A stretch of 64,000 nt of DNA from the sequence record EU863408; one strand, written 5' to 3'. Each line of letters starts with the position of its first letter. The first letter of the stretch is position 1. The stretch comes from Escherichia phage JSE. The notes under the pieces are model-generated. The model worked only from the letters and a program-made list of their open reading frames with translations. It was not told the DNA's origin and searched no databases. Shown here in pieces: positions 1 through 31,365 of the stretch. A program made the position numbers and the translations under genes.

Positions 1-774
1 GTCTTCTTGAAGGTCTTTAATCTTCTGGCGATCTTGCATTATTTCGTCCATCTTGTCAAGTGCTGCGATGAAATCATCGAAACGTTCAAAGGTTTTACCT
101 TCATTTGCTTCGCCAAATTTAACCATTGTCAGGCCGTAACGACTACTAAACAGACGTTTCAACTGTCCAACGATTTTAGAATCAGTGGTTATAACTTCCA
201 ATTCTTCTACTTCACGAAAGAATTTTCTATCAGAATCAATAAACCAGCTAGTTCCCTTATGGTCGCTATCTTCTGTTGCGCTCATTAGAGTATGGTCTTT
301 ACCATCAATTTCAATTACATCAATTTGCCCACATGGACTAACATTTTTAACAGTAAAAGGTCTATAATTTATTGCTCGTGCAATAACATAATTAAGGTTA
401 GATACGTTTTCAGCATAATGGCAGAAGTCTGTCATAGCATTCGCATCTTTCCAAGTATAAGTTTTACCAACTTCCCATTTCTGGGGAACTTCTTCAACTT
501 CACGAAAGAATTTTCTATCAAATGGACTAAAGAAATATGTTGCAGTCCAAATGTCTTTTCCTGTAGCAGTTTTCGCCGTATGATAAACACCGTCTAGCTC
601 TATTGCATCAATCCAACCGTTACCCTCGATCTCGATGATGGTAAATGGCTTGTCACCAATAGCTGCACTAATATCGCTGTTAAGTGGAGAAAGAACACCT
701 TCTCCGTTAGTAATAAACTCAGTTTTAGCGTTTTCGTCTTTCCAGGTGTAAGTTTTACCAATTTCCCATTTCAT
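1..774 (-). CDS. Paralog family A protein, 3' end runs off window start; contains two copies of the KWE(V/I)GKTYTWKD module
   Basis: Minus-strand ATG at 774 with AAGGGGA RBS; translation MKWEIGKTYTWKD..., second PQKWEVGKTYTWKDAN repeat near 440-480; no stop before position 1. Confidence 0.55.
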   Translation of the reverse strand, partial: MKWEIGKTYTWKDENAKTEFITNGEGVLSPLNSDISAAIGDKPFTIIEIEGNGWIDAIELDGVYHTAKTATGKDIWTATYFFSPFDRKFFREVEEVPQKWEVGKTYTWKDANAMTDFCHYAENVSNLNYVIARAINYRPFTVKNVSPCGQIDVIEIDGKDHTLMSATEDSDHKGTSWFIDSDRKFFREVEELEVITTDSKIVGQLKRLFSSRYGLTMVKFGEANEGKTFERFDDFIAALDKMDEIMQDRQKIKDLQED

Positions 775-786
775 AATATATTCCCC

Positions 787-1251
787 TTAACCGATTTTAT
801 CAAGTTCGTTTAATGCTTTCTCTGCTTCCTGTATAGCTTGCACCCTTTCCGGCATTTTGTCAAGAAAATCTTTCAACTCTTCAAAACTGGAGATATGACG
901 CAAGGCGTTAGCACCGATAGCCGCATGTGATTTGCATTCAAAGCGGATTTTATAATTATCCATCGCCAATTTGAGAAGATCAATTAATTTAGATTCTTCT
1001 GGAATAATAATTTCTTCAAATCTGCTACGGTCATGATCCAGAAACCAACAAGATAGACCTACATCGGTTGAACTCATATAAGTTCCATCATGAAGATAAA
1101 CAGACCGCACGTATCCTTTTTTCGCATCAACCGACGCAACTTTAAACGGTAATCTCAGATATTTCAAATAATCAACATCATACCATTTAAAAAATTGGTT
1201 TGCATCTTTTACATCTTTCCACGCATAGGTCTTACCAACTTCCCATTTCAT
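787..1251 (-). CDS. Paralog family A protein (N-terminal MKWEVGKTY, PFKV...DGTY beta module, C-terminal helical region)
   Basis: ORF track 787..1266; start moved to ATG 1251 which follows the stop of the upstream gene; shares motifs with 1..774, 1256..1783 and 6382..9020 genes. Confidence 0.55.
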   Translation of the reverse strand: MKWEVGKTYAWKDVKDANQFFKWYDVDYLKYLRLPFKVASVDAKKGYVRSVYLHDGTYMSSTDVGLSCWFLDHDRSRFEEIIIPEESKLIDLLKLAMDNYKIRFECKSHAAIGANALRHISSFEELKDFLDKMPERVQAIQEAEKALNELDKIG

Positions 1252-1255
1252 AATA

Positions 1256-1783
1256 TCATCTCTCATTTTTGATACGTGATTCTAATTGGATCATACGGTC
1301 GCGCGTTTGCTTGTATTCGCGGATAGCACCGATCCGGCTAGGCATACCATCAAGCACGCTCTTAATACCTTCTAGGGTAGTAATTTTGGCAATGCTATTA
1401 TGTAACCCCATCTTATCGATCAACTGAATGTCGTAGGCTTCCATAAGCAGACCCAGGCGTTCTAAAGTTAGGTCTTCTTCTTTTTCTTCCGATTCTGGAA
1501 TCTTAGGTTCAATAGTAACTTCGGTAAAGAAACGACGCTCACCCGACCAAAACCACACACCGGAACAGCCAATAGGGGATTCTTTTAACGTCATAGAGTC
1601 GAAATTACTACCAATAATAGTAATTTCTCTAACATCACCATCATCGTCAAGGTCTTCTACCCTAAACGGGCGACCAGCCAACAAGTCCACAATACATCTG
1701 TTAATAGACGACGAAAATTTAGTCAGTTCGGCTTTCGACGCTTCGCATTCAATCTTGTAAGTTTTACCAACTTCCCATTCCAT
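1256..1783 (-). CDS. Paralog family A protein (MEWEVGKTY N-terminus)
   Basis: ORF track 1256..1792 begins at GTG; ATG at 1783 preceded by GAGGTGA RBS. Confidence 0.55.
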   Translation of the reverse strand: MEWEVGKTYKIECEASKAELTKFSSSINRCIVDLLAGRPFRVEDLDDDGDVREITIIGSNFDSMTLKESPIGCSGVWFWSGERRFFTEVTIEPKIPESEEKEEDLTLERLGLLMEAYDIQLIDKMGLHNSIAKITTLEGIKSVLDGMPSRIGAIREYKQTRDRMIQLESRIKNER

Positions 1784-1793
1784 AATAATCACC

Positions 1794-2297
1794 TCAAATA
1801 ATTTTCACTGGAATACTATTAACAATCTTGTATTGTACTTGATTGTCAGACCCCCGCCACGGCTTCTTCGTTGGCATATCTTTAATATAACGCCCATCGA
1901 TGAACATGTCAACTGATTCTACAATTTTTCTTTGCTCATCATTCAATTGGTCAAGGGTATAACCGGACCATAGCCAAATATCTTTATTTGGCATCCATGA
2001 TTTTACTTCATCGATGATCCGCTGTACACCCTTTAAATTGCGTTTATACAACGGATCACCACCTAAGAATGTTAGCCCCTGAATAAAATCAGGTCTAAGC
2101 AGATCCAGAATCAATCCCATTGTATCATCGGTGAATGGTTCCCCGTTCTTAGGATTGAGTAGGCTAGCATTAAAGCAACCATCACATGCGTGTGAACATC
2201 CGGTAACGTAAAGGGAGACTCTCACTCCCTCACCGTTAACCATATCACAATCTTTAATATCGGCATAGCGTAGTTTGCCGTATGTATCAGAACTCAT
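1794..2297 (-). CDS. nrdG: Anaerobic ribonucleotide reductase activating protein NrdG (radical SAM-type activase)
   Basis: GCSHACDGCFN cysteine cluster and GGDPL motif as in T4 NrdG; ~167 aa; directly downstream of nrdD as in T4. Confidence 0.85.
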   Translation of the reverse strand: MSSDTYGKLRYADIKDCDMVNGEGVRVSLYVTGCSHACDGCFNASLLNPKNGEPFTDDTMGLILDLLRPDFIQGLTFLGGDPLYKRNLKGVQRIIDEVKSWMPNKDIWLWSGYTLDQLNDEQRKIVESVDMFIDGRYIKDMPTKKPWRGSDNQVQYKIVNSIPVKII

Positions 2298-2439
2298 ATT
2301 CAATTACCCCGAACTCGTTTACAATCTGCGCTTTATAGTAACCACCGCGAGATGCTAATAGATAAGCTGGGCTTAGGTATTCGTATTCACGGATTTCTAC
2401 TTGTGCGTTTTCAGTTTCCCAAATCAGTAAAGTCCACAT
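2287..2439 (-). CDS. Small hypothetical protein (~50 aa)
   Basis: ATG at 2439 preceded by CAGGAGAATCAAAT leader and promoter cassette; longer ORF-track start runs through the promoter. Confidence 0.4.
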   Translation of the reverse strand: MWTLLIWETENAQVEIREYEYLSPAYLLASRGGYYKAQIVNEFGVIEYEF

Positions 2440-2481
2440 ATTTGATTCTCCTGTAAAGTTGTATCTCGTCTTGATGAATAT

Positions 2482-2510
2482 AGTATAGGGGATCTCGCGA
2501 TCCCCGTCAA
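2482..2510 (-). promoter_or_regulatory. Sigma70-like early promoter cassette (TTGACG-17-TATACT) with palindromic GC-rich spacer GGGGATCGCGAGATCCC
   Basis: Read on minus strand; followed by conserved leader and GGAGAATCAAAT-ATG. Confidence 0.6.
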
Positions 2511-2514
2511 GCAT

Positions 2515-3063
2515 TTATTTAAATTTTTCGAGAGATTTCAACCACAGGCGGCCTGGTAGGTACTCTCCGGCAAACATGAAATTGTCATCTGGATAAGAAC
2601 GCAGCATATTCAAAATAAACTTCCGGCACTCTTCGTAATCTTTACGTTTAAGATAAATCACATTCTCGCCAGTACCGATCACACCTTTTCTGTATCCATG
2701 CTCTTTACGCACAGACCATTGTACAGTATCTTTTTTAACCCGAATCACAACAGGTTCCCAATACCCAGCGCATCCGGCTACACCACACGAACAGGTGAGG
2801 AAGTATTGACCTTTTGCTTTGTTTTCCTCCCACCCGATATTAACCGGATGCCATTCGTGAAACAAGGCTAAAGCATCGTGTGTCTCTTCGATCTGTTTAT
2901 TGTCAATTCTTACCGTAACCATCCATACAGGGATCTTATTTGTTGGTTCATCATCATAACATGAATCATCATCAATATGTTCTAATGTCATGTCAACATT
3001 AATTGATTTTGCGTGTTCCATGTGTCGTTGTGCTTTACGCTTACGATTCAATAATTTAGACAT
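2515..3063 (-). CDS. Hypothetical protein (183 aa, cysteine-containing CSCGVAGCAGYWEP segment)
   Basis: ORF with GAGGTG RBS before ATG at 3063; no recognisable family. Confidence 0.5.
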   Translation of the reverse strand: MSKLLNRKRKAQRHMEHAKSINVDMTLEHIDDDSCYDDEPTNKIPVWMVTVRIDNKQIEETHDALALFHEWHPVNIGWEENKAKGQYFLTCSCGVAGCAGYWEPVVIRVKKDTVQWSVRKEHGYRKGVIGTGENVIYLKRKDYEECRKFILNMLRSYPDDNFMFAGEYLPGRLWLKSLEKFK

Positions 3064-3075
3064 ATTCACCTCACA

Positions 3076-3612
3076 TTATAAACGAAATTGTACGCCATCA
3101 AAATGAGAACTTGCATTACAGCTATTATAGATAATAAATCCTGTATCTGGCGCTTGTACTACAAATTGACTTGCATTAACAGCGGCAACAGTAAAAATAC
3201 GATCCGTGAGACTATGTTTAATTTCTGTCCCAACTTCCAATGGGATGTACTCTTCCTCTTCGACCCCAACACCAAAACAGCCTTCTTCATGGTACGCCTG
3301 AATCTTTTTATCACAATTACACAGTTTAGCAAAATCAAGCGTATACAATTCACGAGAGTTGTCGGTATAAACCAACACAGATTGATTATGATAGCGAATC
3401 ACATACAGGTTATTATCTTCGTCAACGACACAAAAACTACGGATTTGTGTGCCTTCGCCTTTACTCCAGCAGATATTAACAACCGTTCCCATAATAAAGA
3501 AACTTTCTTTTGTACCAAAGCTAGCCAGTGTGCTAGCGTGCATTTTAACAACTACACCATCACCAATTTCTAACTTGCGAATTTTAATTTCTTTATTCAA
3601 TATACAAAACAT
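3076..3612 (-). CDS. Hypothetical protein (178 aa)
   Basis: ATG at 3612 downstream of TTGACA-16-TATAAT promoter and AGAGAGGA RBS. Confidence 0.5.
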   Translation of the reverse strand: MFCILNKEIKIRKLEIGDGVVVKMHASTLASFGTKESFFIMGTVVNICWSKGEGTQIRSFCVVDEDNNLYVIRYHNQSVLVYTDNSRELYTLDFAKLCNCDKKIQAYHEEGCFGVGVEEEEYIPLEVGTEIKHSLTDRIFTVAAVNASQFVVQAPDTGFIIYNSCNASSHFDGVQFRL

Positions 3613-3643
3613 AATGTTGTCCTCTCTTGTTTTCGATGTGAGC

Positions 3644-3671
3644 ATTATACACGAGCTAATCCGGTTGTCAA
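3644..3671 (-). promoter_or_regulatory. Sigma70-like early promoter TTGACA-16-TATAAT
   Basis: Minus-strand read of 3644..3671; directly downstream of terminator hairpin. Confidence 0.6.
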
Positions 3672-3682
3672 CACCCCAAAAC

Positions 3683-3710
3683 GAAAAAGCCGACCCTTTC
3701 GGATCGACTA
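3683..3710 (-). terminator. Rho-independent terminator after nrdD (CGAUCC-GAAA-GGGUCG stem-loop followed by U run)
   Basis: GNRA-loop hairpin with G-U wobble followed by GCUUUUUCGUUUU on minus strand. Confidence 0.6.
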
Positions 3711-3714
3711 AAAA

Positions 3715-4707
3715 TTACATGTGCTTAACGCGGTTTACCATCTCGGAGTGTTTCCCGTGGTTAAATGGACGCAGATCAACAGATCCAAGATATCCACTAA
3801 CGCGACGGATAACATTCATCTTTTCCAGATTGTCATTTCCGCAATCAGGGCAAACAAAACCAGACTCGGTCGCTCTCATTTCCTTATTAGATCCGCATAC
3901 ATGACATACATCAGAAGGAGTATTAACACCGAAGTAGTGCAATTTATCCATTGCATAGTCTACTACAGTTTCAAGACCTTTCAGGTTGTTTTTCATGTCT
4001 GGGAACTCAACATAAGAGATCATGCCACCGGACGCCAGCCAGTGATAATCTTTCTCAAAGTCGATTTTCTCAAATGGTGTGACTTTCCGGTCTACGTCAA
4101 GGTGGAATGAGTTGGTGTACCAGTCTTTATCGGTAGCACCCTTAACAATACCAAATTGCTCTCTGTCCAGTCGATTAAATCGATAGCAAAGGCTCTCGGC
4201 TGGCGTACCGTAAAGACTAAACCCAAGTCCGGTTTCGTCCTTCCATTTTTCAGTATAATGACGCAAGATCTTAAGAATATGTTTACCGTATCGCTGCGCA
4301 TCTTCCGAATCAAACGGATGAACACCAAACAGGACGCTCAATACCTCATGTAAACCAATATATCCAAGAGAGATACTAGCGCGACCATCTTTCAGCACTT
4401 CCAAAATTTCATCGTTTTGATGAATACGGAAAAATGCACCTTCTGTATACAGTACAGGAGCAACATTGGCTTTAGCCCCTTTTAAAGCGTCTACGCGACT
4501 CATAAGCGCATCAAAGCAAATAGGCATACGATTAGCTAGCTCTTGTTCGAATAGCTCAATTCTGCGCATTACAGACGCTTTACCAGCACGACGCGCGGCA
4601 ATAAGAGCAATACGCGGAAGATTCAGAGTCACAACACCCAAGTTATTACGTCCGTCTAATACTTCCTCGCCTTTCTCGTTATGCCACACACCCAGGAAAC
4701 TTCTACA
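3715..4707 (-). CDS. nrdD: Anaerobic ribonucleoside-triphosphate reductase NrdD, exon 2 (C-terminal half)
   Basis: Begins CRSFLGVW...; C-terminal RRVSGYLGS glycyl-radical motif and CHVCG...CPDCG zinc site; ORF-track ATG at 4708-4710 reinterpreted as intron 3' end. Confidence 0.8.
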   Translation of the reverse strand, partial: CRSFLGVWHNEKGEEVLDGRNNLGVVTLNLPRIALIAARRAGKASVMRRIELFEQELANRMPICFDALMSRVDALKGAKANVAPVLYTEGAFFRIHQNDEILEVLKDGRASISLGYIGLHEVLSVLFGVHPFDSEDAQRYGKHILKILRHYTEKWKDETGLGFSLYGTPAESLCYRFNRLDREQFGIVKGATDKDWYTNSFHLDVDRKVTPFEKIDFEKDYHWLASGGMISYVEFPDMKNNLKGLETVVDYAMDKLHYFGVNTPSDVCHVCGSNKEMRATESGFVCPDCGNDNLEKMNVIRRVSGYLGSVDLRPFNHGKHSEMVNRVKHM

Positions 4708-5467
4708 CATTATTTGTTCAGGGTAGGTCGCTAATCTACCCCCGCCTTTCGGCTGCTACATGTCGCCATGCAGATCAGACTATATCTTCTATCTTTCGAT
4801 AGTCTACCATTTCGGATCGCTTGATCCTACGCCGCTACATTCATCACGGCTAGTCGTTAGGCATTTCATAGCGGAACTCATATTCATAAGTATTGGTTTT
4901 TCTACCATCAAGAATTGCAGATACATTTTTACGATGCAAGCCCAATGTTTCAGAAAGACTTCTCACGCTTTTAAATGTCTGCTCTTGTCCGGTTTCTTTA
5001 TGGATCGCAGTAACCTTATATGAACGACGTTTGAACTTATAGCACCCGTTTTCGTAACCTTCTTTCGTGTTTTCGCTGTTAGTCCCCCACTCAAGGTTAG
5101 ATGCATCGTTTATAGTTTTATCGTCGTTTTTATGTTTCACATATCGATAGCCGTTAGGATTCGGAATCCAACATTCAGCCACAATAACATGAACACGCAA
5201 ACATAAAGGTTTCTTGTCTCTCCTTACCCTTACTAATGTATATCCGGTATTGTTTTCTATCCAGGTACTCAACTGTTTACCTTTAGGAGAAAACACCCGT
5301 CCATCTTTCGATACCATATATTCGGTATCACGAATTTTTCTAAGTTCCATAATATATCCTCTTATACACATTGGCGTAAAGAGAATATGACCGCTATGTT
5401 TAGCACGGGATTGTCTTCTAGAGAGTTCCCCCGTTTAGGCAGATTTTAGATGAGCTGTTTAAAGTTT
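4708..5467 (-). mobile_element. Group I self-splicing intron (T4 td/nrdD-like core) in nrdD carrying an HNH endonuclease ORF
   Basis: 760 nt between NrdD halves; 5' segment AAUCUGCCUAAACGGGGGAACUCUCUAGAAGACAAUCCCGUGCUAAA and 3' segment with AGAUAUAGUCUG resemble T4 group I intron core; exon 1 ends in U, intron ends in G. Confidence 0.75.
4850..5350 (-). CDS. Intron-encoded HNH homing endonuclease (166 aa)
   Basis: HVIVAECWIPNPNGYRYVKHKNDDKTINDASNLEWGT HNH motif; ATG 5350 with AAGAGGA RBS; located inside intron. Confidence 0.8.
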   Translation of the reverse strand: MELRKIRDTEYMVSKDGRVFSPKGKQLSTWIENNTGYTLVRVRRDKKPLCLRVHVIVAECWIPNPNGYRYVKHKNDDKTINDASNLEWGTNSENTKEGYENGCYKFKRRSYKVTAIHKETGQEQTFKSVRSLSETLGLHRKNVSAILDGRKTNTYEYEFRYEMPND

Positions 5468-6337
5468 ACCCATCGGGCTAACCGGAACACTAGATCCAGT
5501 GATGCTACGGTTATTCTTCGCAGAGATATAATCAGGGTAAAGACGCTTACTAGAACATTCCAATGCAAGTTGCTTAATGTCGTAGTTCGGATCTTCCGGT
5601 TTAAGGTTTAATCCTTCTTCTAAGAACATCACCAGCTTAGGAAACACCGGAGTTATACCGTCTTTACCTAAACCTTTAGTTCGAACTTTCAGGATCGCTT
5701 TCTGAATCAGTTTTTCTTCCCAGCTAGTACCCATACCAAAGGTTAAAGTCACAAAAGGTGTTTGACCGTTGGTAGAGAACAAAGTGTTGATCTCATATTC
5801 CAACGCCTGATATCCGTCTAACGTTTCTTTTTCTGTTTTCTCTTGTGCATAGAGAGTATCAGCTTTGATTCCGTAGGTTTCGGCATCAGCAAGGTGTTTA
5901 TGATATGTTTTCTTAACATACGGCGCTAACACCTGGTCGATGTTTGCAATTGTGGTCCCGCCATATTGATGACTTGCCACCTGTGCGATAATTTGAGCGG
6001 TTACAGCACATGCAACACCGATCGATTTAGGACTTTCGATTTGTGCGCTACCCAATTTAAAACCATTCTCTAACATGTCTTTGAGATTAACAAGACAGCA
6101 GTTAGTAAACGGCATAGCTGGTGCATAATCCATATCATGATAATGAATATCACCGTCTACATGCGCTTTATAGATGTGCTCAGGTAACACGGTTTTAGCA
6201 ATATGTTTAGACACAGCGCCAGCAATCAGATCTCGACGTGTCGGGAATGTTCGCGCGTCTTTGTTCGCGTTCTCTTTGCTTACTTCGTTTTCTTTACCCG
6301 TTGCGATCTCTGTAATGTCTTTGATTAGTTTTTCCAT
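5468..6337 (-). CDS. nrdD: Anaerobic ribonucleoside-triphosphate reductase NrdD, exon 1 (N-terminal 290 aa)
   Basis: ATG 6337 with AGGTGA RBS; ends ...VPVSPMG; ORF-track stop 5459-5461 lies inside the intron. Confidence 0.8.
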
Positions 6338-6348
6338 TGTATCACCTA

Positions 6349-6371
6349 TGAAAAAGCGGGATTTCTCCCGC
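6349..6371 (-). terminator. Terminator-like hairpin (GCGGGA-GAAA-UCCCGC + UUUUUC) 12 nt upstream of the nrdD start codon
   Basis: Perfect 6 bp GC stem, U run overlaps nrdD RBS region. Confidence 0.5.
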
Positions 6372-6381
6372 TCGTTGATAG

Positions 6382-6876
6382 TTATTTTACCAGTTCTGCT
6401 AATTCTTTTTCTTTAGCTTCTAGTTCAGCTTTAAGCTGTTTAATCTCTTGTCGCTTCTTATTAGCGGCTTCCTGCTTACTATTTCGGATAACCTGATCTA
6501 GATACAACTCCCAATCCTGAATATTTTTGATAATGTATCCGTCAACATTAATTGGTCGGAGATTCAGTACAGCTTCCAGTTTAGTTGCAAAAACTTTAAT
6601 TGCTGGGGTGAAGTATTCATATTCGTTATCTTCAAACCAATAACCTAGACTTGCATTCTCAATACGAAGATGAAGTTTAAGATCAAGGTCTTTATCATCG
6701 GTATATAGGTCTTTTACACACCCCATAGAATTAACAACAACTTTAAAACGAATTTTATCTACACCACCAAAAACATCTTCAAGAATATCAGCAATTGAGC
6801 TATTAGCGCAAGATTGGTCGCTGAATGCGTCAAGGTTTTCTTTAGTTACAGTATACCAAACATCTTGTACCCACAT
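6382..6876 (-). CDS. Paralog family A protein (164 aa) with C-terminal coiled-coil
   Basis: ATG 6876 after promoter cassette; IRFKVVVNSMGCV and RPINVDGYIIKN modules. Confidence 0.5.
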   Translation of the reverse strand: MWVQDVWYTVTKENLDAFSDQSCANSSIADILEDVFGGVDKIRFKVVVNSMGCVKDLYTDDKDLDLKLHLRIENASLGYWFEDNEYEYFTPAIKVFATKLEAVLNLRPINVDGYIIKNIQDWELYLDQVIRNSKQEAANKKRQEIKQLKAELEAKEKELAELVK

Positions 6877-6906
6877 AATATAATCCTCTCGTTGTTAAGT
6901 GGGAGT

Positions 6907-6934
6907 ATTATAGCATACTCCCTTCGCATGTCAA
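6907..6934 (-). promoter_or_regulatory. Early promoter cassette TTGACA-16-TATAAT; -10 sits in loop of GGGAGTA/TACTCCC palindrome
   Basis: Minus-strand read; leader ...GAGAGGATTATATT-ATG. Confidence 0.6.
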
Positions 6935-8109
6935 GCACTAACTTTTTTCTTTACTGCTTTCACCTTCTGGCGAATTACTCGAATCTCTTCGATCTCTTTT
7001 TCAGTCTCTTTAACAATTTCTTTGCGATTCTGAATATCTGTATCGAGATTATCATCAAGTTTAGGCAGCATGTCAATCAAGAACTTTTTAAAGTCTTTCA
7101 GGTTTCGGATAACAGCACCTTCACCCATTACCGCCACACCAACACCATCCGGCAGATCACCAAACAGTTTAACCAGTTCAGACAGATGATCATGGTCTTC
7201 TAATGCTTCCTCCGGTTCAGATGGCAGTTCAACAAAGTTATAACGTTCATCATTGCTGATCAAGTGATACCAGCAAAGCCCGAAAGATTTCGGTGTATAT
7301 TCTACACCATCAATTTCAACCGCGTCAACACTTCCATAATCATCTACTTTAGTTACCTTAAATCCTTGTCCCAGCTTTTGAACAATTTCAACAACATGAC
7401 TTGATACAGTTTCAGCGGTAAACCAATATGGCAAATTATGCTGATTTGGCTTGTAGCGTTCACCTACTTTAAATCTCTGACCATCCGCTTGCATAGCATG
7501 AAATTGTTGTTTCGTGATTTCCGCGAAGTATTCAAATTCGCCACCATCAAACACACAAGCCCATTGATCACAAAAACGATCTGCCTTAACAGTTTCACCT
7601 TTCGCGGTGATCATGGTAGCTGATCCGTGCAATTCTTCTTCAACTAAAAAGCCATATTCGACAAAATCAACAAGTTTCATAGCTTCTTTGTGATCTGGAT
7701 CATGCTCTCCCCAGAATCGCTTAAATTCTTGCAAACCTTCTGGTGTAAACGAATAACATTTACCTTTTTCAAAGTAAGTCGGCATTGCATCCTCTTTCTT
7801 GTTCATCGCTTCGTATGCCTCTTTTGAGATGCGTTTAAAGTATTTACGCTCATCGTGCATAATCATAGTAGCCCAATAATAAACGATATCCTCAGCGGAA
7901 TAAACTACATCTCCAGCTTCAATAGTAATAACATGACCGTTGTCATCTTTTTCTAATACTTTAAAGCCCTTTTCGACGATTTCAGCAACCCGAATATGAC
8001 CACGGCGCGAAGCATCGGTCAGAATAATTGAATAGCGAGAAAAGTCTAGAAACTCATCTTTACCACCTTCACGGAATGCATAGTAATGACCTTCAAAGAA
8101 TTTAGCCAT
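6931..8109 (-). CDS. Paralog family A protein (392 aa) with duplicated GFKV...ERKYFKRI module
   Basis: ATG 8109; motifs EKGFKVLEKDDNGHV...ERKYFKRISK and GQGFKVTKVDDYGSV. Confidence 0.55.
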   Translation of the reverse strand: MAKFFEGHYYAFREGGKDEFLDFSRYSIILTDASRRGHIRVAEIVEKGFKVLEKDDNGHVITIEAGDVVYSAEDIVYYWATMIMHDERKYFKRISKEAYEAMNKKEDAMPTYFEKGKCYSFTPEGLQEFKRFWGEHDPDHKEAMKLVDFVEYGFLVEEELHGSATMITAKGETVKADRFCDQWACVFDGGEFEYFAEITKQQFHAMQADGQRFKVGERYKPNQHNLPYWFTAETVSSHVVEIVQKLGQGFKVTKVDDYGSVDAVEIDGVEYTPKSFGLCWYHLISNDERYNFVELPSEPEEALEDHDHLSELVKLFGDLPDGVGVAVMGEGAVIRNLKDFKKFLIDMLPKLDDNLDTDIQNRKEIVKETEKEIEEIRVIRQKVKAVKKKVSA

Positions 8110-8140
8110 AATATAATCCTCTCGTTGTTTAAATGGGAGT

Positions 8141-8169
8141 ATCTTACTACTCCCGTTTCATCATGTCAA
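8141..8169 (-). promoter_or_regulatory. Early promoter cassette TTGACA-17-TAAGAT within GGGAGTA/TACTCCC palindrome
   Basis: Minus-strand read. Confidence 0.6.
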
Positions 8170-8172
8170 GCG

Positions 8173-8733
8173 TTAAATGACTTTTTGGATCTCTTTCAGT
8201 TCAGCTACTTTATCGGCGCTGAATTTAGCGTAGGTATCATGTCGAATAATTTCACTTTCAAGAAAGGTTTCCAGCCGAGATCTATTTTCAATAAGGAACT
8301 CTTTCAGGTCTTCCGCGTTCTTGATAAAGATTTTATTGTCAGTAATGTCATCTTCAATCGCAAAGGAGATAGAGCGAACTTTACCAAACAAGTTAATCAG
8401 ATCTTCCAGCGATTCTTCTTTCTTAACTGGTTTCATTTCTTCAAACTGCTTTTTAGTGATGCGTTTAAAGTATTTGCGCTCGCTTGCATCAATCATGATT
8501 GACGCACCCTCATAATCATGAGTTTCTACCAAATACACTTTACCCATAACATTAACCGTAAGAACTTTAAAGCCCCTGTGAAGCACACCATACAGGAACT
8601 TGTTATGTTGTGGATAGCGTTTAACAAATTCCTCTGCGGACTCAGCATTACGGAAAGTGTAATAACGACCTCGTTCAAAAACAGCATCATTTGAAGACTT
8701 AGCTGGATACAATTTATACGTTTTCTGTACCAT
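8173..8733 (-). CDS. Paralog family A protein (186 aa)
   Basis: ATG 8733 with GAGGATT RBS; HRGFKVLTVNVMGKV...ERKYFKRITK module. Confidence 0.55.
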   Translation of the reverse strand: MVQKTYKLYPAKSSNDAVFERGRYYTFRNAESAEEFVKRYPQHNKFLYGVLHRGFKVLTVNVMGKVYLVETHDYEGASIMIDASERKYFKRITKKQFEEMKPVKKEESLEDLINLFGKVRSISFAIEDDITDNKIFIKNAEDLKEFLIENRSRLETFLESEIIRHDTYAKFSADKVAELKEIQKVI

Positions 8734-8747
8734 AATATAATCCTCTA

Positions 8748-9020
8748 TCATTTCACTAATTGAACAGCACGAAACAGAATGCGGTCACACGGAAGAAGCA
8801 TAAATTCCCAACGCGGATCAAAGTCTTTAGCGGTATATGTTTTCCCATCAACCGAGATTTCACTTACATAACCAATAGGTGACACTTTAAGAACAGTAAA
8901 CCCATTCTTGATGACTTCGTAGGTATCTTTCAATCCTTCGTAGTCATCCTCTAGGAAGTCTTTACGTGCTTGCTCAGATTTAAAAACATAGGCCACACCG
9001 GATTTAAACATCTTACGCAT
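8748..9020 (-). CDS. Paralog family A protein, short (90 aa, single beta module)
   Basis: ATG 9020 after GGAGAATCAAC leader; KNGFTVLKVSPIGYVSEISVDGKTY module; ORF-track start 9080 is a TTG inside the -35 box. Confidence 0.5.
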   Translation of the reverse strand: MRKMFKSGVAYVFKSEQARKDFLEDDYEGLKDTYEVIKNGFTVLKVSPIGYVSEISVDGKTYTAKDFDPRWEFMLLPCDRILFRAVQLVK

Positions 9021-9051
9021 TGTTGATTCTCCTTCTTGATTAGATGGGAGT

Positions 9052-9080
9052 ATTTTACTACTCCCATTTCTTATTGTCAA
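9052..9080 (-). promoter_or_regulatory. Early promoter cassette TTGACA-17-TAAAAT within GGGAGTA/TACTCCC palindrome
   Basis: Minus-strand read. Confidence 0.6.
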
Positions 9081-9083
9081 CTA

Positions 9084-9557
9084 CTATCTTAATCTTTGTA
9101 TAAATTGTTTCTTATACTTCTTCGTGATCTCTTCTCTTGTATCAGCGTCACAGTAATCGAAACCTTCTGCGTCCATAATAGCAACCATCTCCGCGCGTGT
9201 CAAGCGTGAAAATCGTTTTACTTTATCAACAGCATATTGAGGATGTAAATGATTGTTGGTGTAGTCTCCTTTGATGTAATTAACATAGTTTGTAGCCCAA
9301 ACAACGAAATCAGCACCTAAAGCACCAACACCAAACCGTTTAAAGTCTCCGGTCAACGATCCTTCTAGGCGGTTGCAACACGAATGAAGCAATCCCCTTA
9401 CACGGCCTTGCCCTTTCCCATCTAGATCGTGGTCGTGGTCAAGATGGTTTTTGCTCATATCCTCAAAAAGTGGCAATTGACAAAGGGGGCAAATACCCCC
9501 CTGTTTTTCGAATAGTTCTTGTTTGTACTCTTTAGCACTCTTAGCAGTCAGTAACAT
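9084..9557 (-). CDS. 49: Endonuclease VII (Holliday junction resolvase, 157 aa)
   Basis: HLDHDHDLDGKGQGRVRGLLHSCCN and C-terminal ...FSRLTRAEM match T4 gp49 as recalled; length identical to T4 endo VII; GGAGGGTGA RBS. Confidence 0.9.
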   Translation of the reverse strand: MLLTAKSAKEYKQELFEKQGGICPLCQLPLFEDMSKNHLDHDHDLDGKGQGRVRGLLHSCCNRLEGSLTGDFKRFGVGALGADFVVWATNYVNYIKGDYTNNHLHPQYAVDKVKRFSRLTRAEMVAIMDAEGFDYCDADTREEITKKYKKQFIQRLR

Positions 9558-9581: not shown

Positions 9582-9863
9582 TTAACCATGAATCTTGTTT
9601 TTGACTACAAAGGATCGGAACTCATCAAAGCCACCAATATAATCACCATCATAGAAAATCTGCGGCATGGTGGCAATAACTTCTACCCCTGCGCGATCCT
9701 GAATGTCGGCAATGATAGAATCAATCTTTACAGGGCGACCGTTTTCGTCCACACCATCATTGACAGGAATATAGATGTAAGGGATCTTACGCGATTCACA
9801 AAGGCGCTTTGCATTCTGGCAATACTTACAGTTGTAACCTTCAAAACCAAAAATTTCTACCAT
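9582..9863 (-). CDS. nrdC: Glutaredoxin/thioredoxin NrdC
   Basis: CKYCQNAKRL active site (T4 has CVYCDNAKRL) and MPQIFYDGDYIGGFDE; 93 aa; GAGGTA RBS. Confidence 0.85.
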   Translation of the reverse strand: MVEIFGFEGYNCKYCQNAKRLCESRKIPYIYIPVNDGVDENGRPVKIDSIIADIQDRAGVEVIATMPQIFYDGDYIGGFDEFRSFVVKNKIHG

Positions 9864-9871
9864 GTTGTACC

Positions 9872-10684
9872 TCAATCTACGTTAGTTACATAAACTTCTT
9901 GTGTATCAGAAGACTTACCACCTGAACGATCTAGGCAATAGGTCTTATTCAACAGGACGCAGTTTAAATCATTCCGCTTGATAAAGTCAAGGAGATGATC
10001 ATTTACCTTTCCCTTATGATGTGTGACATTACTGATACCAAACCGAAAACCACGCTCCATAATAGATTCTACCCACTGATAGAATTTAATCTCTTCCTCG
10101 TCACTCCAGAACTTATTGTATTCCGCAGAAGTGATAAGGTACGGCGGGTCCAAATAAACGAAATCACCTGGCAAGATCTCGATCTCGTCATAGCGACCAG
10201 ACGTAAAACTGATTCGACCGTCTTTGTTTTCTTCCTTAAAATTCAGGACACGCTCTACCGCGTTTTCGTTAAAAGTCCGGCGACCAAAATTAGCATTAAA
10301 TTCTCCCTTCCTGTTATGGCGGTTAATGTTGCTAAAACTGTGCTGAATCAGAACAAACAGAGATAGCGGATCTGGATTCTCATTATACTTCTTACGGAAT
10401 GCCATGTAAGCGTCTTTATCTTCGCGAGACAAACCATTCTCGGCAATAATCCGCTTGATCGTAGAAACCGGGTCAGGACACTCGTCAATCGCTTTGTACG
10501 CGTCAATTAAGCGGTGATCATAGTCATTAGCCAGCACATCCCCTTCGACGTACAGAGACACGCTCAAGCCGCCACAAAAGGCATCAACAAAGCGGTTATA
10601 GTGCTTAGGGAAATACTTACTAACACCAGGCAATAACTTTTCCTTATTGCCAGTATAGGGAATTAAACCTAATGCTTTCTTCAT
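9872..10684 (-). CDS. dam: DNA adenine methyltransferase Dam (alpha-class, DPPY)
   Basis: NRFVDAFCGGLSVSL motif I and DFVYLDPPYLIT motif IV, YNKFWSDEEE, matching T4 Dam as recalled; start at MKKALG with GAGGAAGGG RBS. Confidence 0.9.
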   Translation of the reverse strand: MKKALGLIPYTGNKEKLLPGVSKYFPKHYNRFVDAFCGGLSVSLYVEGDVLANDYDHRLIDAYKAIDECPDPVSTIKRIIAENGLSREDKDAYMAFRKKYNENPDPLSLFVLIQHSFSNINRHNRKGEFNANFGRRTFNENAVERVLNFKEENKDGRISFTSGRYDEIEILPGDFVYLDPPYLITSAEYNKFWSDEEEIKFYQWVESIMERGFRFGISNVTHHKGKVNDHLLDFIKRNDLNCVLLNKTYCLDRSGGKSSDTQEVYVTNVD

Positions 10685-26996: not shown

Positions 26997-27335
26997 TCAC
27001 ACCTTTAAAGTCATAGACGCATAAACATTAATGTCAGGCCAGTTAGGTTCGCAATTATACTCAACATCCCACAAATAAAGCGGTTTAGATGTATCAGCCA
27101 AGTTTTTAAAATCTTCTACCCACATTTCAAGGCTATATGATGGATAAACTAGGCTATCATATCCGCCGTAACGTTGGCCTACTGGTCGGTCAGTAAAAAC
27201 TACCTCAAGATCCGGTAATTCTTTTTCAAGGATAACCGCCAGCGCATAAATCAGACGGTCTTCCTTGTTACGCTGCCGAAGGACCGTTGTCAGTGGGTTT
27301 TTCTGGTTCACTAGCAAGCACCTCCACATTTTCAC
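26997..27335 (-). CDS. Hypothetical protein (<=112 aa)
   Basis: ORF; 5' end overlaps upstream gene. Confidence 0.35.
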   Translation of the reverse strand: MKMWRCLLVNQKNPLTTVLRQRNKEDRLIYALAVILEKELPDLEVVFTDRPVGQRYGGYDSLVYPSYSLEMWVEDFKNLADTSKPLYLWDVEYNCEPNWPDINVYASMTLKV

Positions 27336-27588
27336 AGAATGAAATTTTCACAGACACAATTTTACCATAAGTGAAGAATGAATATACATTATCGAGATAT
27401 TCAACGTCACCTACAATCACATCAAACTGCGGATCAGCAACCGCCGCAACATATTCTACCAGTTCATCAAGAGAATGCAACTTAATTTCATCAATTCGGC
27501 TGTATTTGGTTGCATCTTTGATTTTAAAACCACGTTCTTTCAGCTTATCAATTAGAATTTCACGCGGAGTTTCAAACAGTTTGCTCAT
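27268..27588 (-). CDS. Hypothetical acidic protein (106 aa)
   Basis: ATG 27588 with GAGGATTATATT leader. Confidence 0.45.
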   Translation of the reverse strand: MSKLFETPREILIDKLKERGFKIKDATKYSRIDEIKLHSLDELVEYVAAVADPQFDVIVGDVEYLDNVYSFFTYGKIVSVKISFCENVEVLASEPEKPTDNGPSAA

Positions 27589-27610
27589 AATATAATCCTC
27601 ACATAGTTAA

Positions 27611-30918: not shown

Positions 30919-31293
30919 TTAAGAAAATTTTACTTCGTCTACAATGTCTTTCATGACATTGATTTCCATTCCGGTCAGAACACGTTGGAACATGTGCTGC
31001 ACATACGCTTTCAGGTATTCATTTGATGGCTTGCTATCGAAAGTCTTTTTAGTGTAGTAGTCATCACCGAAAGCTACTGTAATTACATTTTCGTCGTCGT
31101 TCCAAGCGATATAAGCAAATTTGCCGTTATCCCAGAAGCGAGCACTAATTGCTACTTTTGTTGAATCGAATCCTACTTCGCTGTGAGATTCAAGAACTAC
31201 TTGCGTACCAGTTTCTTTATGAATGTAGTAGCGGGATACTAAGTCAAAGTTACGGGTGTAGTGACATTCGAATTTATCTTTAAACATCATCAT
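30919..31293 (-). CDS. Hypothetical protein (~125 aa)
   Basis: ATG-ATG-ATG at 31293 after conserved leader; ORF-track start 31362 runs through promoter. Confidence 0.45.
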   Translation of the reverse strand: MMMFKDKFECHYTRNFDLVSRYYIHKETGTQVVLESHSEVGFDSTKVAISARFWDNGKFAYIAWNDDENVITVAFGDDYYTKKTFDSKPSNEYLKAYVQHMFQRVLTGMEINVMKDIVDEVKFS

Positions 31294-31330
31294 TTTGATT
31301 CTCCTAAGTGTGTTTCGTTTCGATATGTGC

Positions 31331-31360
31331 ATTATGCTATAGTCGTTTATGGTTGTCAAC
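31331..31360 (-). promoter_or_regulatory. Early promoter TTGACA-18-CATAAT
   Basis: Minus-strand read; leader GCACATATCGAAACGAAACACAC. Confidence 0.55.
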
Positions 31361-31365
31361 ACCTA

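Follow-up and report, generated by a model that had tools for sequence, protein, structure and literature searches.

The subject of this analysis is a group of seven genes of Escherichia phage JSE, contained in a 64,000-nucleotide stretch of its DNA (sequence record EU863408) to which we refer as the window. The genes, here named M1 to M7, lie on the minus strand and flank nrdD and nrdG. Bases 1-9100 of the window were 94-97% identical, over 86-90% of their length, to RB49 and about 50 other Krischvirus genomes, and the source of the DNA is a Krischvirus, an RB49-like phage; the context is certainly that of a T4-type phage. All seven open reading frames (ORFs) were present where a preliminary description of the DNA had placed them, and the peptide strings quoted in that description were found in the translations. 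The genes correspond one-to-one to RB49 ORF049c, 050c, 051c, 057c, frd.2/058, 059c, and 060c. As judged by sequence comparison, they almost certainly arose when a family of T4-type early proteins, GoF/Frd.2/MotB.1, expanded in this lineage.

All-against-all BLASTP connected M1, M2, M3, M5, M6, and M7, with E-values of 3e-10 for M1-M2, 9e-11 for M2-M3, 3e-6 for M5-M6, and 0.017 for M6-M7, and also revealed internal repeats. A hidden Markov model (HMM) built from nine modules, with M4 omitted, recovered each copy at 1e-25 to 1e-32 in a search of the 609 six-frame ORFs of the window. The next match was M4, the weakest member, at E = 1e-3. Profile-profile comparison of M4 and its orthologues with the other modules (hhalign) gave a probability of 96.4% and E = 1.1e-9 over 82 columns. 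The paralogy claimed in the preliminary description was borne out and is far beyond chance. Two other window ORFs (27271-27606 and 30922-31362) matched the module HMM at E = 0.02-0.1 and were rejected, as neither a broader profile nor Pfam gave them any support.

The module is ~90 residues long with invariant residues Y9, F40, G49, and F86 (M3 numbering). The seven window genes hold ten modules by HMM domain count, because there are two copies in M1 and three in M5 (domain E-values for M5 of 1e-24 to 2e-27); the suggestion that two members carry the module twice was correct for M1 and one copy short for M5. Identity between modules was 15-38%, except for the pair inside M1 at 53%, and the modules are old paralogues. 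The C terminus of M1 is clipped by the edge of the window and lacks ~16 residues, the RB49 orthologue ORF049c being 274 residues long. Coordinates are collected in Table 1.

Table 1. Positions of the family genes and of associated promoter elements in the window, and of two further family members in RB49
Feature	Position	Strand	Description
M1	1..774	-	RB49 ORF049c orthologue; two tandem barrels and the start of the shared C-terminal domain
M1 barrels	aa 1-97 = nt 484-774; aa 98-195 = nt 190-483	-	HMM domains, 2e-28 and 2e-30
M2	787..1251	-	RB49 ORF050c orthologue; one barrel (aa 1-86) and shared C-terminal domain
M3	1256..1783	-	RB49 ORF051c orthologue; barrel (aa 1-93), flexible linker (aa 94-102), shared C-terminal domain
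M4	6382..6876	-	RB49 ORF057c orthologue; divergent barrel (aa 1-96) and its own coiled-coil tail
M5	6931..8109	-	RB49 'frd.2'/ORF058; barrels aa 1-100, 112-203, and 212-300, and shared C-terminal domain
M6	8173..8733	-	RB49 ORF059c orthologue; short basic leader, one basic barrel, shared C-terminal domain
M7	8748..9020	-	RB49 ORF060c orthologue; bare barrel module, 90 aa
PeSL upstream of M4	6901..6934	-	TTGACA, 16 nt, TATAAT; 12/12 with TG; GGGAGTA...TACTCCC across -10
PeSL upstream of M5	8135..8169	-	TTGACA, 17 nt, TAAGAT; same GGGAGTA/TACTCCC stem-loop
PeSL upstream of M7	9046..9080	-	TTGACA, 17 nt, TAAAAT; same GGGAGTA/TACTCCC stem-loop
Candidate sigma-70 promoter	1884..1912	-	inside nrdG 3' end, ~100 nt upstream of M3; consensus match only, no stem-loop
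ORF048c	RB49 NC_005066.1 30297-30773		further family member (locus L006)
dc2	RB49 NC_005066.1 11993-12628		further family member (locus L001)

With an HMM built from the window modules only, a search was made of 1120 six-frame ORFs that span all T4 early regions. The three best matches were GoF (1.4e-8), Frd.2 (5e-4), and MotB.1 (0.07), with the fourth match at 0.77; the MotB.1 match taken alone is borderline. The profile search thus assigns the family to known T4 proteins, an outcome that the preliminary description had itself named as one that would refute it. That description had not recognised the family from T4 and had put it forward as a candidate for an undescribed phage system. Both statements have to be given up, as the list of T4 matches is headed by GoF, by Frd.2, and by MotB.1 and the family that they form has been published (Kim et al. 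2025, PMC12152347).

Database profiles gave a concordant picture. The window proteins matched phrog_5347 (M2 at 5e-60), 622, 16115, 15067, and 3710 (the last two by M4) in the PHROGs collection, and also three PHROGs named 'goF mRNA metabolism modulator', namely phrog_8944 (M5 at 1e-213), 13003, and 2980. M5 and M6 carry this same label in RefSeq and PHROGs. By identity, at 27-29%, the proteins of the M1-M3 group are nearer to GoF. M5 has been named 'frd.2' since the RB49 GenBank record AY343333. However, the Pfam FRD2 model (PF03197), with which T4 Frd.2 scores 133 bits, gave no match to any of the seven at E up to 1. Because the model fails on M5, the RB49 name does not denote orthology to Frd.2, and the database label is corrected here. 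Scans of the seven proteins with Pfam, NCBIfam, and PADLOC gave no match above threshold. The weak matches from such scans (RecT, KIB1-4 propeller, CARF_PIN, and others; E = 1e-3 to 0.1) were inconsistent across the paralogues and were set aside as noise.

Kim et al. (PMC12152347) described GoF with Frd.2 and MotB.1 as one family of T4-type early proteins with an 'LSm-like fold', in which an N-terminal five-stranded barrel is followed by a flexible linker and a variable C-terminal domain. On hosts defective in rho, T4 is rescued by two GoF mutants, D25Y and G84R, and GoF(D25Y) lengthens the half-life of a gene 41 5' untranslated region reporter in a post-transcriptional, Hfq-independent manner. 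Wild-type GoF and MotB.1 have little effect and the T4 genes are dispensable; goF had first been read as an anti-termination factor (all PMC12152347). RB49, Krischvirus, and multi-barrel forms are not mentioned by Kim et al., and Krischvirus lies outside the subfamily Tevenvirinae that is named in the title of their paper. The HIDEN-SEQ preprint makes no mention of the window family genes.

The window proteins and the T4 family have in common the homologous N-terminal β-barrel of ~90 residues, the flexible linker to a variable C-terminal domain, the predicted fold with its FeoA/IdeR/Tudor/Hfq-like structural neighbours, and an occurrence confined to phages, in genes of T4-type phages that are early or, in the window, predicted to be so. 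The differences are ones of number, architecture, and location. RB49-type genomes hold nine family genes with twelve barrels, whereas T4 has three genes with one barrel each, and two of the window proteins are tandem two- or three-barrel forms. The window genes flank nrdD and nrdG, whereas the T4 genes adjoin cef, motB, or frd. The window family is real and well delimited, and it is an expansion of a described family and not a new kind of system. Support was obtained for the proposal that many genes have arisen by expansion in a hyperplastic, predicted early region of a T4-type phage.

The helical C-terminal region that had been reported to follow the module is a genuine shared domain of ~75 residues in M1, M2, M3, M5, and M6, as detected with a C-terminal-domain HMM (2e-23 for M1). 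It is not present in M4, the tail of which is a different coiled coil, or in M7, which has no C-terminal domain. The M3 domain was predicted by AlphaFold2 as a helix, two short strands, a helix, and a long helix, and the shared domain is a Krischvirus-specific α/β domain ending in a long helix. In all five proteins it is joined to the barrel by a flexible linker. A search with the C-terminal-domain HMM found no T4 counterpart of the domain, and its structural neighbours were uninformative, being generic coiled coils only.

The AlphaFold2 model of M7, based on a 56-sequence alignment, had a predicted local distance difference test score (pLDDT) of 92.4 and a predicted template modelling score (pTM) of 0.82. 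The order of elements is β1, two helices, β2, β3, β4, a short helix, and β5. For M3 the pLDDT was 80 overall, ~88 in the barrel, and below 50 at linker residues 94-102. The window barrels are thus predicted to be bent five-stranded antiparallel β-barrels with neighbours of the FeoA/IdeR/Hfq type, as in the GoF family. The best structural neighbours were FeoA, the SH3-like domain of IdeR/DtxR, the Mib repeat, and the UvrD/PcrA Tudor domain, with KOW and Tudor domains among the fold neighbours. This list is an independent reproduction of the one obtained for GoF by Kim et al. (PMC12152347). A sequence profile search of all PDB chains detected no related chain and returned one irrelevant match at E = 0.027.

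Resemblance in fold did not amount to membership of either the FeoA/DtxR or the Sm/LSm/Hfq group. The window modules have no sequence similarity to FeoA or the DtxR/IdeR SH3-like domain (no Pfam FeoA or PDB-sequence match), metal-binding histidines are absent, as noted for GoF (PMC12152347), and the biology of FeoA is unrelated to that of the window family; the window proteins do not classify as FeoA/DtxR SH3-like domains. With the Sm/LSm/Hfq proteins they share a small bent five-stranded antiparallel barrel and, via GoF(D25Y), a link to mRNA stability. Unlike those proteins, the window barrels lack the N-terminal helix, have helices between β1 and β2, show neither Sm1/Sm2 motifs nor a Pfam match, and would derive multivalency from tandem repeats. 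Moreover, in contrast to the Sm/LSm/Hfq rings, AlphaFold3 gave no confident ring or dimer of GoF or MotB.1, with an interface pTM (ipTM) of at most 0.3 (PMC12152347). They are accordingly not classed as Sm/LSm/Hfq proteins either. Because the N-terminal helix and the Sm motifs are absent, 'LSm-like' is the less apt label, and the models suggest that 'FeoA-type SH3-like barrel' describes the fold better.

Early promoter cassettes had been attributed to four of the seven genes. Three clear cassettes were found, at M4, M5, and M7; the fourth site lies in nrdG and has no stem-loop. Each of the three cassettes matches the sigma-70 consensus at 10-12 of 12 positions and has a conserved ribosome site, and a 7-bp G+C-rich stem (GGGAGTA-N6-8-TACTCCC) spans the -10 box. 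The stem pattern was found at these three sites only in the 64 kb and in 0 of 100 shuffles. A ribosome-site motif, GA(G/A)GATTATATTATG, is common to M4, M5, and M6. The cassettes have the composition of the PeSL elements of RB49/phi1, namely a consensus sigma-70 promoter, a stem-loop over the -10 box, a Shine-Dalgarno sequence, and a start codon. PeSLs were found by experiment to be strong promoters and terminators and were proposed as mediators of modular shuffling (Arbiol et al. 2010, PMC2839356). By their sequence the 'early promoter cassettes' of the preliminary description are PeSLs; there is no essential difference from PeSLs in general, and the three in the window have one common stem sequence. 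In the record of phage GEC-3S a promoter is annotated at the spot equivalent to the M7 PeSL.

M1, M2, and M6 have no promoter of their own. M6 begins 14 nt after M7, and the M7 PeSL probably drives both genes. M3, M2, and M1 come after nrdG, the gaps being 4-12 nt, and, apart from the candidate promoter inside nrdG, are predicted to be co-transcribed with it. The right-hand cluster is predicted to be transcribed early, because it sits behind strong sigma-70 PeSL promoters. A further PeSL-like element is present on the minus strand at 3644-3709, just downstream of nrdD and on the upstream side of ORF055. A terminator-like hairpin with a 9-bp stem and a T tract precedes its perfect TTGACA-16-TATAAT promoter, and the stem is unlike that of the family cassettes.

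Beyond the window, the family has two further members in RB49. ORF048c (E = 2e-13) corresponds to a position directly left of the window, downstream of M1 and between M1 and nrdH, and dc2 (E = 1.7e-7) is directly upstream of the helicase gene 41. The mRNA of gene 41 is also the one that T4 GoF(D25Y) affects. A HMMER scan of 1.84 billion representative proteins yielded only 63 clusters at E up to 1e-3. Foldseek against viral models gave 66 matches, of which all the named ones were uncharacterised proteins of T4-type phages, plus phAPEC8. The hosts of the matched phages include Escherichia, Proteus, Edwardsiella, Aeromonas, Pectobacterium, Serratia, and others. Among the relatives there are several with two or three barrels, and C-terminal domains of at least three types occur. 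The triple-barrel M5 was found by tblastn only in 57 Krischvirus records. The 'GoF' of CC31/PG7-type (Karamvirus-like) phages (phrog_13003) resembles the window forms in having tandem barrels in one goF-annotated polypeptide. In contrast to the window genes, it is encoded at the canonical goF-cef locus and has a different C-terminal domain (...F.V.DE..RL.AI..L), and none of these proteins is triple-barrelled.

A metagenomic triple-barrel relative, P0109, had no match in the phage collection. Three long repeat proteins with many partial profile matches, P0083 (4074 aa), P0088, and P0124, were judged to be unrelated; the sequence of P0124 is that of a repeat protein of the β-propeller type. P0043 and its relatives, proteins of 143-167 aa from T-even phages, combine the barrel with a C-terminal motif shared with MotB (PF17613, positions 118-153, 7e-8). 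This combination hints that MotB-type C termini may be one interchangeable C-terminal domain of the GoF/Frd.2/MotB.1 family.

The region was compared in 14 genomes of Krischvirus. For M2, M3, and M4, and for the second barrel of M1, there are two or three discrete barrel alleles with 38-53% identity to one another, and the identity of these barrels falls as low as 38-49%. M2 and M3 each have an A and a B allele, and the M4 alleles include window, Brandy, and Whisky types. The C-terminal domains of the same proteins have mean identities of 99.8% (M2), 99.3% (M1), 95.7% (M4), and 93.8% (M3), with minima of at least 97% for M1 and M2, at least 86% for M4, and 68% for M3, the last value being low because the ECD7 copy is frameshifted. 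For the nrdG, nrdD, and gene 49 proteins the mean identity was 99.1-99.5%, the minimum 97.6%, and the synonymous divergence (dS) 0.06-0.08. The allele breakpoints are sharp and fall at the edges of the barrel. In 31 database orthologues that could be aligned with M3 from end to end, barrel identity ranged over 48-98% and C-terminal domain identity over 89-100% (at least 94% in 30 of the 31). In M6 the alleles of the barrel and of the C-terminal domain assort independently. Gene conversion between paralogues was rejected as the source of the alleles, because the nearest sequence to any alternative allele is its own positional orthologue. A test for simple positive selection on the barrels gave ratios of nonsynonymous to synonymous divergence (dN/dS) of 0.2-0.44, with raised dS, and none above 1. 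The sequences are best read as an exchange of old allelic cassettes and not as demonstrable positive selection. The M3 orthologue of ECD7 (locus L017, 2012-2503) diverges after about residue 140, at the frameshifted C terminus, and is annotated as 163 aa; the cause may be an error in sequencing, or the shared C-terminal domain may be naturally truncated.

Clues to function were sought in an alignment of 87 family modules. Five semi-conserved basic columns (40-61% K or R) flank the invariant aromatic residues and are located just before or within β1, on β2 (FKV), and in the motif (E/D)R(K/R)(Y/F)F before β5. GoF G84 aligns with one of these columns, with EAGFF in GoF opposite ERKYF, ERRFF, and DRKFF in window modules. 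The residue in this column is K or R in 5 of the 10 window modules and in 33 of the 87 family rows, or 40% of ungapped residues, so that the G84R suppressor restores a basic residue typical of the family. The column of GoF D25 is aromatic in 5 of the 10 window modules. Several window barrels are natively aromatic or basic at the positions of the GoF D25Y and G84R substitutions; an aromatic residue, a basic one, or both are found there in M1, M3, M5, M6, and M7.

On balance, the explanation that we favor overall is an expansion of the GoF family in which the barrels would act on the fate of mRNA. As to the function taken alone, modulation of mRNA fate through a basic and aromatic face of the barrel is the most likely of those considered, and is proposed tentatively. 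The barrel would be a recognition module acting post-transcriptionally, and what it binds would be RNA itself or a component of the RNA-decay or termination machinery of the host. The face used would be the semi-conserved basic and aromatic one formed by GK.Y on β1, FKV on β2, and (E/D)R(K/R)(Y/F)F before β5. Multivalency would come from tandem barrels and from oligomerisation through the C-terminal helix, in place of the rings of Sm and Hfq. Barrel cassettes would pass between related phages while the C-terminal domain to which they are attached stays constant, and such exchange suggests that each barrel allele sets a specificity.

Several observations weigh against this proposal. Of the ten barrels in the window, eight are acidic (net charge -1 to -9), which is a poor fit with general RNA binding; the barrels of M6 and M7 have net charges of +5 and +1. 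The GoF D25 column is variable and adjoins an indel, which makes the D25 correspondence suggestive at most. The dN/dS of the divergent barrels, 0.26-0.44, is five- to ten-fold above that of core genes but does not exceed 1, and their dS is also raised. Mosaicism of the same degree is seen in an unrelated ORF nearby, 2515-3069, which indicates that part of the signal is the general behavior of a hyperplastic region, and the cassette pattern may simply reflect general recombination there. The promoters and the timing of expression in the window phage are predictions.

Nearly as likely as an action on mRNA fate, although in itself doubtful, is a protein-targeting arsenal for host takeover or anti-defence, in which the barrels are protein-binding modules in the style of SH3, Tudor, or FeoA. 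Each barrel would dock a different host factor or defence protein, or would help to evade recognition, and the constant C-terminal domain would oligomerise or have a common effector function while the barrel alleles track host targets. The acidity of most barrels fits this explanation, as do the best structural neighbours, which bind proteins or peptides (FeoA, IdeR/DtxR, and the Mib repeat, with the UvrD/PcrA Tudor domain binding RNA polymerase). So do the allele data, as phages that elsewhere are ~95% identical have two to three barrel alleles, deeply divergent, joined to C-terminal domains that are nearly the same, and as the assortment in M6 is independent. The family is multicopy, non-essential, early, and phage-restricted, with few clusters among the proteins scanned, and all its named relatives are uncharacterised phage proteins; Kim et al. 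also leave open an indirect action via nucleases (PMC12152347). However, the pull-downs of Kim et al. yielded no functional insight (PMC12152347), no PADLOC model was matched, the dN/dS is below 1, the mosaicism extends to the unrelated neighbouring ORF, and the sole phenotype known for the family concerns the level of RNA.

A more far-reaching form of the cassette proposal, which we consider unlikely, is a multivalent arsenal for host takeover or anti-defence in which the FeoA-like barrels serve as interchangeable specificity cassettes. In that case each of the 12 barrels of an RB49-type phage would have its own target, be it a host RNA, a host protein, or a component of a defence, and the conserved C-terminal domain would assemble the barrels into oligomers. 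Recombination would circulate divergent barrel alleles and so keep pace with variation among host strains. The three single-barrel genes of T4 would be a reduced remnant of a richer system, and GoF D25Y and G84R would recreate residues that are native to other paralogues.

It is improbable that the proteins are DNA-binding nucleoid-associated proteins or modulators of transcription, by analogy with T4 MotB, in which the barrel or the C-terminal domain binds DNA. Such a role is suggested by the T-even members that join a barrel to the MotB motif (P0043 and its relatives), by the first interpretation of goF as an anti-termination factor, and by the RNA polymerase-associated KOW and Tudor domains among the fold neighbours. 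However, the MotB motif is absent from the window proteins (Pfam), their C-terminal domains are mostly acidic or neutral, and the effect of GoF(D25Y) is post-transcriptional and not transcriptional according to Kim et al. (PMC12152347). A wholly undescribed system with no T4 counterpart, or a chance resemblance of motifs, would accord with the failure of Pfam (FRD2 included) and NCBIfam to cover the proteins and with a shared C-terminal domain that T4 lacks, but is highly improbable, with paralogy E-values that reach 1e-32 and a family already in print (PMC12152347), and is refuted by the T4 HMM ranks, the matches to three goF-named PHROGs, and the profile-profile comparison of M4.

The role of wild-type GoF has been a puzzle since the 1970s-90s, as the mutants rescue T4 on rho-defective hosts and the three T4 members are phenotype-free. 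RB49-type phages offer natural single-, double-, and triple-barrel forms, a shared C-terminal domain, and barrel-swap alleles on a constant background, and in several of their paralogues the aromatic or basic residues with which GoF becomes active on RNA are already in place. With their natural barrel-swap alleles and multi-barrel forms these phages are a better system than T4, one that could help to assign a function to a family which, with its 66 viral structural matches, is widespread in T4-type phages.

Other genes in and beside the cluster also vary among the Krischviruses. Two minus-strand ORFs between nrdG and nrdD, 2515-3069 and 3076-3645 (RB49 ORF054c and ORF055c), do not belong to the family and have divergent alleles, with minimum protein identities of 48% and 72%, respectively. 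The window allele of ORF054 is strongly unlike that of RB49 and resembles that of SFHK24. A small minus-strand ORF at 2287-2514 overlaps the start of nrdG and matches Pfam DUF7170 (2e-17); RB49 has a shorter ORF053c of 153 bp. In the window nrdD is broken exactly at ...SPMG|CRSFL... by an insert of ~750 bp (4711-5458, minus strand). The insert contains an ORF (4850-5371) for a 173-aa HNH endonuclease (Pfam I-HmuI NUMOD-like, 7e-8; HNH_3, 1e-4). In addition, its positions 4756-4983 match the Rfam group I intron below threshold (27.4 bits against a gathering score of 50; E = 9e-5). The nrdD gene is uninterrupted, at 1863 bp, in RB49 and eleven annotated relatives; LF73P4, the thirteenth genome compared, is unannotated. 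By its sequence the insert appears to be a mobile group I intron that is peculiar to the window isolate. Next to the cluster, dam lies beside nrdC in the window, RB49, and other genomes, and is replaced by an annotated homing endonuclease at ~9800-10250 in ELT3 (L011), KMB43 (L015), and GEC-3S (L016), a presence/absence polymorphism.

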